Assembly: GCF_963921235.1 (NCBI RefSeq)
Contig: NC_086097.1
Span: forward strand, 38,318,001 to 38,382,000
DNA from: Mobula hypostoma
Lineage: Eukaryota
Direction: 5' to 3'
Length of the DNA: 64,000 nt
The translations under genes were made by a program, and so were the position numbers. The stretch's first letter is position 1; each line of letters starts with the position of its first letter. Shown here one piece after another: positions 17,188 through 57,188 of this stretch. Under the pieces are notes generated by a model. The model was not told the origin of the DNA. It did not search any database and saw only the letters and a list, made by a program, of their open reading frames with translations.

Positions 17188-17375
17188 AACAAACTCAAAA
17201 TGCTGGAGGAGCTCAGCAGGCCTGGCGACACCTATGGAAAAGAGTATACTCGATGTTTCATGCCAAGAAACATCGACTCTACTTGTTTCCATAGATGCTG
17301 CCTGGCCTTCTGAGTTCCTCCAGCATTTTGTGTGTGTTGCTTGGATTTCTAGCATCTGCAGATTTTCTCTTCTTT
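17188..17375. repeat. Penelope-derived fold-back (palindromic) short element, older copy
   Basis: caaaatgctggaggagctcagcagg...cttctgagttcctccagcattttg inverted arms plus one-sided tail atttctagcatctgcaga. Confidence 0.8.
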
Positions 17376-17498
17376 GAGAATTTCAGCGGCTAGGGTTTGA
17401 AACTAAAGGCTTAATGCCAGTGGTGGTCCACTGATGGAGATAGGAAAATAATCGACCTAGTTTTAATTTGAAGCTGTTTTTAACTATCTCTCTTACAG

Positions 17499-17605
17499 AA
17501 AGTTTTGCCGACTCCAATAGTGACCTCTCTGATTCGGATCAGTCTGATGTGCCAGAACTTGATTCTGAGATTGAGCAAGAAATACAGATTAGTTATCATC
17601 GGCAG
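17499..17605 (+). CDS. EML5: EML5 exon D (acidic linker [27 protein letters not shown]...RQ)
   Basis: tcttacag acceptor, CAG|gtatct donor; [13 protein letters not shown] motif. Confidence 0.92.
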
Positions 17606-18849
17606 GTATCTATGAACTGTGTAGATGAAGCAATAAATTTCATTATTACTGTACATCTTGTCAATTTTCATTGGAATCTCAGAAAGGTCTAGTTTCTTAA
17701 TAATAATCATAGAATTTTGCATTAATTATGTTTGTGTGTGTAAAATATAGTATGTGTGGACACAAATTAAGTAATTGCCAACCACAACAGAGATTGTTTC
17801 TGTGTTGTGCACTGTTAATAAGCAGAATACGTTATCTTTTTTTTGCTAATTTTTGGTTTCAGATGTACTCTATTTAGCTTACAAGGTACTGCAACTTATA
17901 CCCAAACATGAAGATGGTTTCTCTTGCAGAAGTGCAGAAATCCTAAGACCGTTCTGTCTTTTGCACTTAAGCTTGCGTTTTAACTAGAGCTGTTGTTTTG
18001 CTTGGGGTTTCCAGTTTATTTTTGATTTTGATGTTCATCTCTTCCCTTTTCACACAGCTGCTATTCCATTTTGTTTTATCATAGACCTTTCAGCCTGCCA
18101 CAACCTCATACAAATCCCAAGCATTTCTTCTTTAGAAACGACACTGGTACCAAGCTGTATCGGTGCTTGCCCTTCCCTTGGACAACATCAGTGACGTGGA
18201 GAGGGGGAACCCACTGCATGGGCAACAGCCAGTCCTTCAAATCTTCCTGCTCAGTCTTGCGCCCTGGAGAGGACACAGTCCACCAGAGGCTCAAAAACCC
18301 ATGATCCCCTGGGATTGATGGCTGCCTACATTTAGTTCTTCTGGGACTGTACCCAACACTGAAGAGGTCATTGTCCTTGCATGTTGATGGAAAATTCATG
18401 TCTGCTACAATTCTGCTGGCTCATTTGGATTTTATAACCAGATTTTAAGTCATTTTTCTTAATTTTACAGCCCTCGGGTGCAGTATAGTTCTAATTATTC
18501 TTGCTAGTTCCATGGCTTCCTTAACAAGATGCTCAGGACTTCAGATTTATAGTCAAATGCTCTGTTCTTTAATTGATGACTCAATGTTCATTCCTATCTG
18601 CACTGATGGAGTTAAATATGTATGTATTGAATTTCATTGCAATCATAAGTCATATAAGTTTCATTACTAGTAGTGGGTGTTACATCAGATTCCCTAACAA
18701 AAGATCAGGTGAAATCTTGGATTTATGATTGCTGTAGGTGAAAAAAAACTGAATTATAAACATAGCTCTCTTTTCTAAATGTACCCCTTTAATCTATAGG
18801 TGATCCCTTGTTTTCTTTTAATGTTATGAATTCTTTTCACCTGCAATAG

Positions 18850-18968
18850 ATTTACAAAGAAGACCTACCTCAGCTTAAAGAGAAATGTAAAGAAAAACGT
18901 CAAGAAGCCACGGTAAAGAAACGAGATAAAGCTCCCGACAGCAGCCTGCGCTTACATTTTGTTCATGG
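18850..18968 (+). CDS. EML5: EML5 exon E ([16 protein letters not shown]...[13 protein letters not shown]), start of HELP motif
   Basis: aatag acceptor, GG|gtacgg donor; joins exon F as HG-YRGYDCR. Confidence 0.9.
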
Positions 18969-19221
18969 GTACGGTATCTTGGTGGAATCAATTTTTTAAA
19001 TGTCATTTTATTGAGAGAACGCATGTGGCAAGGTTTTTAATTTAACATGTCGCATTGATTGATTGTTGTCAGGTTTGTGTGGCCATAAGTATGTACGTGC
19101 TACCTGAGTGAATTGAAGCAGGAGGGCCAAACTCATTTGAAAGGCTGTTAACAGGATGGAGAAAACTGTCTAGGAAAAAGTCTGATCTGACTTCTCTGTA
19201 ACTTTCATTTTACCTCTTCAG

Positions 19222-53900: not shown

Positions 53901-54690
53901 AAATGCAATGTTAGCATTGATTTCAAGAGGACTAGAATATAAAAGCAAGGATGTAATGTTGAAACTTTATAATGCACTGGTGAGACCTCACTGGAGTAGG
54001 TAAGCAGTTTTGGGCCCCTTATCTTAGAAAGAATGTGCTGAAAATGGAGAGAGTTCAAAGGAGATTCACGAAAATGATTCCAGGATTGAATAGCTTGTCT
54101 TATAAAGAGTGTTTGATTGCTCTGGGCCTGTGTTCACTGGAATTCAGAAGAATAAGGGGTGACCTCATTGAAACCTATCGAATTGTGAAAGGCCTCGATA
54201 GAGTGGAAGTGGAGAGGATGTTTCCTATGGTGGAGAGTCTAAGACCAGAGGACGCAGCATCAGAATAGAGGCAAACAGCAGGAATTCTGCAGATGCTGGA
54301 AATTCAAGCAACACACATAAAAGTTGCTGGTGAATGCAGCAGGCCAGGCAGCAGCTCTAGGAAGAGGTGCAGTTGACGTTTCAGGCCGAGACAAAGGGTC
54401 TATCAGAATAGAGGGGCGACCTTGTAGAATGGAGATGAGGAGGAATTTCTTTTGGGAGAGGATGGTGAATCTGTAGAATTCTTTGCTACAGGCAGCTGTA
54501 GAGGCCAAGTCTTTATGTATATTTAAGGTGGAAGTTGATAGATTCTTGATTGGTCAGGGAATGAAGGGATACAGGGAGAAGGCAGGAGGTTAGGGCTGAG
54601 AGGAAAATTGGATCAGCCATGATGAAATGGCAGAACGGACTAAATGGGCCAATTGGCCTAATTCTCCTCCTATATGCCATAGTCTTGTAT
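50915..54690 (+). mobile_element. Near-full-length decayed CR1 LINE (ORF1 esterase, endonuclease, RT, 3' UTR)
   Basis: VVIGD..VVVHVGINN, KLANNIKEDTKS, QHGFLKGKSCLTNLLEFFE, RRIRGDLIETY; many stops and frameshifts. Confidence 0.92.
54272..54401 (-). repeat. Penelope-derived terminus inserted in CR1, 13-bp TSD
   Basis: atcagaatagagg at 54259-54271 and 54402-54414. Confidence 0.9.
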
Positions 54691-55384
54691 AATTATTATA
54701 GCAGAAAACATACAGGTGCTAAAAAAAATTAAATAATAATAATATAGCCCAAGTCCCTACGTGTCATGGCCTGCAGATTGATGGTACATGGATGTTGTCC
54801 TAGAGTCATGTTTCTGCAGGAACAGCCTGCAACAGTTCCTCATTTGGACAATGCAGCTGCAAACAAACACAATCCAGCTCGTCTCCCACCAAGCAAACAC
54901 TAGAGGGCAGCCCCAATGTGAGGGGCCAGTCGAGCAAACACTGGAGGGCAGCCCCATTGGGAGGGGCCAGTCTCCAAACCAGTAGTGGCACATAGCCAGT
55001 TCTGCTGTCTCCTGCCTCAGTGGCCGCAGCAGTCTTCCTCAGAGCATGAATGAGGAACTAGTCCACACCACACTGAGGCCACACAGCTCCCCTGCTTTCG
55101 GTCTCGCCAATGAACAATTGAATTGGACACATAGTATTCTACATTACCAACGTCCAACAGGTTTTTGCAATCACAAACACTTCCGAGACATTCACCTGCC
55201 TGAATGTGCTGCCGCTGACACCTACTTCCCTGGGTGGCTGAAGCAGGCTGTAATACAGCTTGAAATAAATCCAACTCGACCACTATCCAGCAACTCACTG
55301 GAGACATGCAGTATTCAGTGTTCTTGATAACCAGCAGTGCCTTGCAACATGAAAAAGGACAATCACATTTGTGGTATTCTTCAT

Positions 55385-56660
55385 GTGAACCTCCTTTGGA
55401 CCCAGTCGAGAGCCCGCACAACTTTCCTTAGATATTGTGCACAAAGGGGCTCACGATTGTCCAAATGTAGTCTGAACAATGCCTTATAAAACCTCAGCAG
55501 TATATCCTTACTTTTATGTTCTAGATCAATCAAAACAAAATGCAAACATTGCATTTGCTTTCCTGCAATCAATCTGCAAGTTAACCTTGAGGAAATCTGG
55601 AATTCAGACTCATAAATGCCTTTGCACCTTTAATTTCTGAATATACTTCCTATGTAGAAAATAGTTCATACCTTTATCTTCCTACCAATATGCATAACCC
55701 CACACTCCTTGTGCTGTATTTTGTGTGGCACCTCTTTGCCCACTCTTCCAACCTGTAAGTCCTTCTGTAGACTCCCTGCCTCTGCAGAAATGCCTGTCTC
55801 TTCACCATTCTTTGATCATCTGCAAAATTGGCCACAGTGCCGTCAGTTCCTGCATCTGGATTATTTATGTGTAAAGTGGGAAGTTGTGGTTCCAAAACTG
55901 ACCCCTGGTGCACTCCACCAGTAACTGGCGGCCATACTGGAAGGATCCCTTTATCCCTTTGTTACCTTGCCTCTAAAGCTATGGGCTCTATGAAAGCCCA
56001 ATGTGCGAGATTTTGTCAAAGACCTTCTTGAAAATCCACGCTAACTAATTCACTATCTAACCTGCTTGGAACCGCAAAGAATTCTAACAGGTTTATCAGA
56101 TAACATCTCCCTTTAATGAAACTGTGTTGATGTCACCCTATTTTATCATGAGGCAACCAGAACTGAACTCATAACCCCAAGTGTGGTTTAACCAAAATTT
56201 TATAGAGTTGCAAAATTACCTCACTGCCCTTGAACTCAATTGCACAGCATAAGAATGTAAGAAGATAAGGAGCAGGAGTAGGCTATCTGCCCTGTTGAGC
56301 CTGCTGCTCCATTCAGTAAGATCATGGCTGATCTGGCCATAGACTCGTCTCCACCTACCTGCCTCTTAACCACTCTATCAACTTGCGCGACATGTTTGAA
56401 GGATCTGTGGATGAACTCCAAGGTCCCTCTACACTTCACAGAATCCTGGCATTAATCTTGTACTCTGCCTTCAAGTTTGATCTGTCAAAGGGCACACTTT
56501 GCACTTTTCCATCAGACACTTCACTACCCGGCTCTGCATCTTTTTAGTTATCCAGTTCTATATTCATTTGTAACCTACAACAACCTTCCTCACTGTCCAC
56601 CAACCTTCGTGTCGCCTGCAGATTTACTGATCCACCCTTCCTCTTCCTCATTTATAATCA
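55385..56660 (-). mobile_element. Cluster of decayed CR1 RT fragments
   Basis: QGSVLEPQL, NFADD, YKALFRLHL remnants. Confidence 0.7.
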
Positions 56661-56968
56661 TCACGAAGAGTGATTGTTTTAAATACAAAGGTGGATGGAT
56701 TTTGGATCTACAAAATAAAAGTTGAGTAGACGGGAATGCAAAGCTGAGGTCACTATCAAATCAGCTGTGGTTTTATTAAATGGTAGAGCAGCTTGAAGGG
56801 ACAAATGGTCTGTTCTAGCTCCTTGTTCACATGTGAAAAGACTGAATTATAAACTCGCATGTAATAGGTGGTTTCAGTTTTATAGAATGGAATTTTAATA
56901 TACTTGTAGTGATTTACTATCACCTTTAAAACCTTCAAAAAAGAGCAGAAAAGCTATATGAAAAAGTA

Positions 56969-57188
56969 AACAACAGGAATTCTGCAGATGCTGGAAATTC
57001 AAGCGACACACATCAAAGTTGCTGGTGAACACAGCAGGCCAAGCAGCATCTGTAGGAAGAGGTGCAGTCGACGTTTCAGGCCGAGACCCTGTTAGTCCTG
57101 ACGAAGGGTCTTGGCCTGAAACGTCGACTGCACCTCTTCCTACAGATGCTGCTTGGCCTGCTGCGTTCACCAGCAACTTTGATGTGTG
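56969..57188. repeat. Penelope-derived fold-back element, 84-bp arms, 13-bp TSD
   Basis: Arms 57007-57090 and 57105-57188; TSD atatgaaaaagta at 56956-56968 and 57189-57201. Confidence 0.9.
57093..57130 (+). ncRNA. Minimal type I hammerhead ribozyme motif (Penelope-type)
   Basis: TAGTC CTGACGA AGG-GTCTTGG-CCT GAA ACGT C GACTG: stem I UAGUC/GACUG, core CUGAnGA/GAAA, palindromic stem III ACGU, predicted cut after GUC (57125). Activity untested. Confidence 0.7.

Follow-up and report, generated by a model that had tools for sequence, protein, structure and literature searches.

Short head-to-head Penelope-like insertions in a ray genome window and the placing of their junctions at a hammerhead motif

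A hallmark of Penelope-like elements (PLEs) is an adjacent, inverted and 5'-truncated copy that meets its partner at a palindromic or microhomologous junction and bears a tail of 30-40 bp on one side only (Craig et al. 2021, PMC8557442; Arkhipova et al. 2013, PMC3846280), and pairs of PLE hammerhead motifs have been described on opposite strands, 100-700 bp apart (Cervera and De la Pena 2014, PMC4209133). In PAc, a Poseidon element of Anolis (Frangieh et al. 2024, PMC11167929), both strands are extended and two reverse transcriptase (RT) start sites define the tail. Here I describe five short insertions in a 64,000-nucleotide stretch of Mobula hypostoma DNA (contig NC_086097.1; this whole stretch is the window). 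They are independently formed, truncated PLE ends that are joined head to head and flanked by target-site duplications (TSDs). As ordinary by-products of PLE integration, dead on arrival, they have an architecture that is already published.

The window copies resemble the canonical endonuclease-bearing (EN+) PLE units of PMC8557442 and PMC3846280 in their head-to-head order, one-arm tail, TSDs (about 8-15 bp long), a junction marked by palindromes or microhomology and a parent with RT and, C-terminally, a GIY-YIG domain, but their arms are only 80-140 nt long, no open reading frame (ORF) lies between them, and their junctions are bunched in the hammerhead. The motif, a predicted one, shares with metazoan PLE hammerheads the CUGANGA core, an extra base before stem II, a G-C first pair, a palindromic CG for helix III and a helix I of 4-5 bp, but its stem II has 4 bp where 7-8 are published (PMC4209133), and in the five copies the junction destroys one or both motifs. 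The likeness to PAc lies in two RT starts bounding a tail downstream of the hammerhead, in the extension of both strands and in AT-rich targets, although PAc belongs to another clade and the inverted junction is not treated in the available part of PMC11167929. MITEs (miniature inverted-repeat transposable elements) likewise have the form of short, TSD-flanked hairpins, and non-LTR retrozymes are likewise PLE-derived and hammerhead-bearing (bioRxiv 10.64898/2026.07.22.740005), but the window copies have no common master junction or fixed TSD length, form no tandem arrays and have mostly lost their cores.

The five insertions and their parent

Positions in the element are counted from the C of CTGANGA as +1 (26539 and 57098), which puts the predicted cut at +28|+29. 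The five insertions, and the hammerhead motif in the last of them, are these:

17188-17378, both strands: 17.2-kb copy, older subfamily; tail-less arm 17188-17268 (minus, from +12), tailed arm 17267-17378 (plus, from +21); TSD 17177-17184/17379-17386
26456-26678, both strands: 26.5-kb copy, young subfamily; tail-less arm 26456-26536 (minus, from +12), tailed arm 26537-26678 (plus, from -2); TSD 15 bp with one mismatch, 26441-26455/26679-26693
34852-35051, both strands: 34.9-kb copy; tail-less arm 34852-34934 (minus, from +12), 1-4 unassigned bases, tailed arm 34939-35051 (plus, from about +22); TSD 9 bp, a T run, 34843-34851/35052-35060
54272-54401, both strands: 54.3-kb copy; tailed arm 54272-54392 (minus, from +11) and, from the core, a sense scrap 9-12 nt long (+3/+6 to +14); TSD 13 bp, exact, 54259-54271/54402-54414
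56969-57188, both strands: 57.0-kb copy; tailed arm 56969-57090 (minus, from +8), tail-less arm 57091-57188 (plus, from -7); TSD 13 bp, exact, 56956-56968/57189-57201
57093-57130, plus strand: minimal type-I hammerhead motif; stem I TAGTC/GACTG, core CTGACGA, extra A, 4-bp stem II, GAAA, CG, TC

All five junction strings reported by the initial annotation were found where it had placed them. Inserts measure 130-223 bp, and the TSDs vary from 8 to 15 bp; those at 26.5, 54.3 and 57.0 kb outscore all 60 random controls. The weaker ones are the 8-11 bp at 17.2 kb, equalled or beaten by 4/60 controls, and the 9 bp at 34.9 kb, by 2/60. The arms of the 17.2-kb copy overlap by 2 nt (GA), and the tail-less arm at 26.5 kb starts at +12, or at +8 if one mismatch is allowed, around a centre that reads CCT-GACGA-AGG. 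At 54.3 kb there is no true second arm, only the scrap; the host is a LINE-like (long interspersed nuclear element) repeat, and because four of its paralogues in the window align across the site with a single TSD copy, as an empty site does, the scrap belongs to the insert.

Sister arms are 100, 97 and 98% identical at 26.5, 34.9 and 57.0 kb, against 88-94% across these three insertions; the arms at 17.2 kb are 83% alike and no closer to each other than to other old copies. Both arms of each insert come from the same source subfamily. No two of the five junctions coincide, and at 26.5, 34.9 and 57.0 kb an arm is closer to its sister than to those of other insertions, so the copies do not go back to one MITE master, a point on which the initial annotation was right. 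A MITE family, with its one junction and one TSD length, is ruled out for the window copies by these junctions and arms together with the 8-15 bp spread. A non-LTR retrozyme is ruled out as well, the copies being dispersed and head to head, not tandem and head to tail with intact hammerheads. In all six two-armed copies with a readable tail region the tail is confined to one arm, and the longer arm at the junction can be either the tailed or the tail-less one. A left-arm asymmetry in 5/5 copies is meaningless because left and right exchange with strand, and Rfam miRNA matches stay under their gathering scores and reflect hairpin shape.

PLEs are represented in the window by 3' remnants only. 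The largest, with the pyrimidine tract of one of its arms, bears on the parent:

58917-60850, both strands: large head-to-head PLE remnant; tailed arm 58917-59783 (minus), tail-less arm about 59790-60850 (plus), interrupted at 60365-60636; TSD 12 bp, 58905-58916/60851-60862
59060-59350, minus strand: pyrimidine tract, C+T 73-90%, at -9 to -300 on the sense strand of the element; hardly any self-complementarity

This copy keeps remnants of a GIY-YIG domain and a CxxxxCxxC linker. Its protein remnant shares 60-81% identity with four ray proteins, 372-457 aa in length, and its closest named relatives belong to two rays, Mobula hypostoma and Hypanus sabinus. Pfam GIY-YIG is matched by three of the four (E 0.0005-0.002, slightly below the curated cut-off), and P0001 and P0004 contain an RT-type YIDD motif; the window remnant by itself matched no Pfam family. 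The linker reads CKQNKCYTC in the window ORF 59376-59999 and CKRNKCYTC in the ray relatives, and such a linker is a criterion for Neptune/Nematis-type PLEs (PMC8557442). With a GIY-YIG domain C-terminal to RT, an inverted 5'-truncated copy with a one-sided tail, and variable TSDs, the parent is, as judged from sequence, an EN+ PLE with a Neptune/Nematis-type linker, and the Penelope origin given in the initial annotation was borne out.

The 3' end of the element runs from the GIY-YIG part through the 300-nt pyrimidine tract, the hammerhead motif and about 60 nt to a tail of about 40 nt. At 57093-57130 the minimal features of a PLE hammerhead are present: the core, the extra base ahead of stem II, both stems and a palindromic remnant of helix III, with a cut predicted after 57125. 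Among the five copies the motif is complete at 57.0 kb alone, and its first stem-II pair there is G-U where that at 26.5 kb is G-C. An Rfam search gave no hammerhead match. In the young arms at 26.5 and 57.0 kb one reading frame stays open across the motif and the whole tail (26538-26678, plus strand), as expected if the tail begins the ORF. A conserved pyrimidine run with CAG/TAG stands right before ATGCTGCC (about +36..+50; 26573-26588, with equivalents at 47075-47090 and 58099-58115). It resembles a splice acceptor, and a second acceptor-like site precedes the motif (-4/-3). PLEs carry 5' introns.

Junction positions inside and beyond the window

In the copies at 17.2, 26.5, 34.9, 54.3 and 57.0 kb, one arm starts at +12, +12, +12, +11 and +8, and the other at +21, -2, about +22, +3 (the scrap) and -7. 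All five junctions fall within -7..+22 of the hammerhead core and, as had been noted, upstream of the predicted GTC cut. A profile search of the window found further copies:

about 58048-58188, both strands: sixth, older head-to-head copy, missed by the initial annotation; junction at CTG...CAG, downstream of the core
30201-30313, plus strand: copy with a single arm, from -4 (AGTCCTGAAGA), and an ambiguous scrap of 5-6 nt; TSD candidate 30187-30200/30314-30327
25699-25800, plus strand: old single-arm copy, 5' end about -21, inside the tract
47029-47091, minus strand: old single-arm copy, 5' end about +35
49718-50280, minus strand: old single-arm copy that extends to about -280 and is split by another repeat
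21200-21964, plus strand: old PLE fragment with a GIY-YIG remnant, 3' end lost

The score of the inverted arm at 58.1 kb was matched by 1/300 random stretches. The claim that all junctions lie in the hammerhead motif is correct for the five named copies, but not for the 58.1-kb copy (about +31/+45) or for the 58.9-60.9 kb copy, whose arms join about 700 nt upstream of it, which leaves 5/7 head-to-head junctions of the window in the motif. The 5' ends of single-arm copies lie at -4, -21, +35, roughly -280 and, by estimate, about -830, and inverted partner arms sought at 30.2, 25.7, 47.0, 49.7, 21, 20.1 and 7.0 kb did not rise above controls; the weak profile matches at 7.0 and 20.1 kb are excluded from all counts.

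The bunching depends on the null: it is a modest bias with two strong confounds that the initial annotation missed, size ascertainment and tract composition. Against a uniform null the scan P is 0/20000 for the range -850..+60 and 0.0003 for -300..+60, and rises to 0.017-0.068 for -60..+60 and 0.049-0.17 for -30..+60. Over ranges from -10 to +50..+70, the upstream-most ends give 0.07-0.17, and both ends taken as independent give 0.005-0.07, which is overstated because the ends are coupled. An exponential truncation null for the seven head-to-head copies gives 0.003-0.014 with a mean of 100-160 nt, and 0.07 and 0.21 with means of 60 and 40 nt. Because arms must be long enough to be seen, a short recognisable hairpin can join only in a window of about 70 nt (about -10 to +60); the clustering that the initial annotation proposed is upheld against the whole element (P <=0.0003) but fades in the range open to short hairpins (P 0.05-0.17). 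One end lies inside +8..+12 in 5/6 short junctions (P 0.010 for -10..+60 and 0.052 for -10..+33), an interval picked post hoc.

As for the tract, its windows mostly fold at or near 0 kcal/mol, and its 4-nt self-complementarity is 0.0011 and 0.0005 against 0.0039 for random sequence, about a quarter of the random rate. For the stretch -8..+60 the two values are 0.0043 and 0.0030, and the coding part has 0.0049. The positions with the most 4-nt partners in the tract are +6..+8 (13, 9 and 6 in the 59-kb arm). None of the seven head-to-head copies has its junction inside the tract, the two copies that end in it (25.7 and 49.7 kb) are both without an inverted arm, and the large copy joins beyond it. 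Microhomology of 2-4 nt is present at 4/7 junctions: 17.2 (GA), 26.5 (CCT), 54.3 (GAC) and 58.1 kb (CTG).

Beyond the window, contigs from four runs of four organisms were placed on the arm stretch 26537-26746, which starts at -2. The element family is very abundant: the runs yielded 79641, 58073, 15172 and 6209 placed contig records, and summed depth in run X1 reaches 11.4 million on the arm against 8.3 on the unique flank, depth being no copy number. Ramps of depth at the ends of the stretch are edge effects. Five of the joints listed (15 of 36) connect opposite strands, with breakpoints 32-87 nt apart, and run X1 has further, uncounted joints; in those five the longer arm starts at -2, -2, +3, +16 and +31, and arms end at +38, +48, +52, +86 and +91, downstream of the motif, so the contig junctions are diverse. 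The 26.5-kb junction of the window is not among the joints listed. Contig rows with a few intervening letters and long mixed loose ends gather at -2..+1, but the stretch has its edge there, so that they only hint at stem I as a 5' boundary. Between +31 and +35, shortly after the predicted cut, there are some 5' ends (58093, 47091 and contig joint 26569/26629), too few and too decayed to be interpreted.

Two asymmetric inverted joints, 26537/26590 and 26537/26624, have summed depths of 112 and 130 in run X1 against 8 on the single-copy flank and recur in run X5, so some fold-back units may have been re-amplified, again with depth not copy number. A direct go-back of 37 nt, from 26573 to 26537 and covering the hammerhead motif only, is present in all four runs and is possibly a tandem-motif locus or subfamily. 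Scans for a 19-nt pattern gave one match in viral contigs and 36 in prokaryote genomes, none extending past the pattern (4/37 loci with short matches only), and pattern scans of metagenomes gave 0 and 0 matches.

Routes to a head-to-head junction

The reading that I favour, at even odds, is that two antisense cDNAs were joined end to end at the hammerhead core, where self-complementary bases last occur ahead of the tract. On the model of anole PAc, the endonuclease would nick both target strands, RT would have two internal starts separated by about 40 nt, one including the tail and one not, and both target ends would be extended into two antisense cDNAs. These could be joined to each other only at self-complementary sequence. 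Going upstream, the hammerhead core would be the last such stretch before the 300-nt tract, the cDNA of which is nearly all purine; the purine run at +5..+11 of the core may pair with CCT/GTC just upstream and with the tract, and the cDNA ends would be trimmed back to the core and joined there. Limits on pairing and the ascertainment of size (junctions at about -10 to +60) could then yield the bunching without the ribozyme acting as a folded RNA. The bunching is probably due to size bias and base-pairing opportunity more than to the ribozyme fold, and the loss of significance once the range is restricted counts for end-joining. So do the one-arm tails with either arm the longer, the microhomology at 4/7 junctions, the poor self-complementarity of the tract and its lack of head-to-head junctions, the many partners of +6..+8 in the tract, and the two RT starts and two-strand extension of PAc.

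Several points weigh against end-joining at the core. Judged from the window sequence, microhomology has left no trace at 3/7 junctions (34.9 kb, 57.0 kb and the large copy), and at 17.2 and 34.9 kb neither arm extends to the tract, so that the argument from its edge does not directly apply. The perfect palindromes GTCGAC, CTGCAG and GAATTC are used by none of the junctions, and from microhomology alone one would expect a looser gathering of one end than that seen at +8..+12 (post hoc P about 0.01). Furthermore, the sample is only 6-7 junctions, and PAc is a Poseidon-clade element whereas the window element has a Neptune/Nematis-type linker.

The comparison with twin priming in L1 is only partial. 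There, a further cDNA is primed from the second target strand, microhomology and overlaps of small size mark the inversion point, and the inverted part is an upstream segment; the 54.3-kb scrap fits, but the second arms of the other window copies mostly re-copy the same 3' segment.

The initial annotation had RT stall or switch template at the ribozyme structure. Template switching survives in a loose sense, in that 2-4 nt of microhomology fits 4/7 junctions, but a stall at the ribozyme structure is not supported, and a halt or switch at a folded hammerhead, possibly dimeric and stabilised by protein, is improbable. It would account for the five named junctions in the motif and for the end at +8..+12 in 5/6; in the young arm the motif is the best-folding of 11 40-nt windows, which speaks for stalling; and the PAc hammerhead is protein-assisted and may be more stable in the ribonucleoprotein (PMC11167929). 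The motif nevertheless folds weakly, with a stem II of only 4 bp, and no better than shuffles either as RNA (z 0.04, -0.77, -1.54) or as cDNA (z 0.23 to 1.21). In the old long arm 28-30 of 84 40-nt windows fold equally well or better, so that the motif ranks 29th-31st. RT stalling is expected at the 3' base of a stem, but 5/10 arm ends lie past the stem-II loop and three past the whole core, and the contig arms among the joints listed end at +38 and beyond. In vitro, PAc hammerhead mutants leave product size unchanged (PMC11167929).

Rather unlikely, too, is a run-off in which RT, starting from the 5'-repeat tail, would reach an RNA 5' end (a start site or splice acceptor) at about -8 to -2, so that strong-stop-like cDNAs of 100-145 nt would be trimmed and joined. 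Longer arms do start at -2 and -7 and the single-arm 30.2-kb copy at -4, and tailed and tail-less arms end alike (means about +12 and about +5) despite starts about 40 nt apart. Among the contigs, 2/5 opposite-strand joints listed fall exactly at -2 (8 contigs in run X1, 6 in X5, 1 in X9), 8 of the 12 listed rows (of 82) of another contig table end at -2..+1, seven having 1-3 letters between, and 323 contigs of run X1 have long, mixed loose ends at -2..+1 (agreement 0.36-0.37; 0.40 at the true 3' end). PAc product length tracks the template 5' end (PMC11167929) and the D. virilis intron ends at helix I (PMC4209133). Edge effects, however, swell the rows at -2, where the stretch started, and the figures come from the 15 of 36 joints, 12 of 82 rows and 24 of 764 loose-end rows listed; the D. 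virilis start site lies 46 nt plus a 75-nt intron upstream (PMC2377424). The initiator-like and acceptor-like motifs here follow very degenerate consensus patterns.

It is distinctly improbable that longer palindromes lost their centres after insertion by hairpin or cruciform breakage, with deletions ending at the motif. The older copies at 17.2 and 34.9 kb have the core on neither arm, microhomology is equally compatible with deletion, and rotifer PLEs show microhomology-mediated deletions (PMC3846280), but arms that are 100 and 98% alike at 26.5 and 57.0 kb imply that these copies were short from early on, the 1.9-kb head-to-head copy still has its centre (about 5-13 nt) although its arms are now only 77-80% identical, and the 54.3-kb scrap adjoins an intact TSD. 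Self-priming, the model put forward in Arkhipova 2013 (PMC3846280), is very improbable here: the antisense 3' end would fold back on core mini-hairpins (CCT/AGG, GAC/GTC) and the endonuclease would resolve the hairpin intermediate. The 26.5-kb copy is a near-perfect fold-back with a 5-nt loop, the same mini-hairpin geometry is seen at 54.3 and 58.1 kb, and minor variants are common to sister arms; at 57.0 and 54.3 kb, however, the loop sits in the tail-less arm, so that the tailed arm is not derivable from a simple copy of the primary strand, and the intermediate would have to be longer and be cut at each end.

A broader proposal, which I put forward tentatively and do not hold to be likely, is that the hammerhead 5' edge is a fixed in vivo stop for the RT of this PLE (an RNA 5' end, a splice acceptor or a protein-stabilised ribozyme) and that much of the family consists of strong-stop-like cDNA pairs, separately made and joined within 30 nt. 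If so, the genome would be a natural map, drawn from very many events, of PLE RT ends and of inverted-junction formation. If a breakpoint peak at the motif is real, one genome-wide count would tell the two-cDNA, self-priming, run-off and stall models apart, with a bearing on how PLEs form inverted junctions and on what their hammerheads do; at this point the peak rests on 5/7 junctions with two strong confounds. No literature on breakpoint clustering, or on mapping PLE inversion junctions onto the hammerhead, was found, and subscription papers and supplements may bear on the point.

Setting of the insertions

The window is vertebrate DNA of 40% G+C and rich in repeats, and the insertions probably sit in the introns of an EML-type gene, one exon of which was recognised:

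47785-48267, plus strand: EML-type WD40 gene exon (Pfam Beta-prop_EML_2, E 9.5e-14)

Many decayed LINE-like RT/endonuclease fragments lie at 7985-8886, 11303-11923, 24201-25231, 39710-40837 and 41433-43999, and ORF fragments at 36090-36741 resemble a Tc1/mariner transposase (WPCQSPDLKPIENLW). A further short hairpin at 35314-35449, unrelated to the PLE arms, has weak Rfam matches on both strands.

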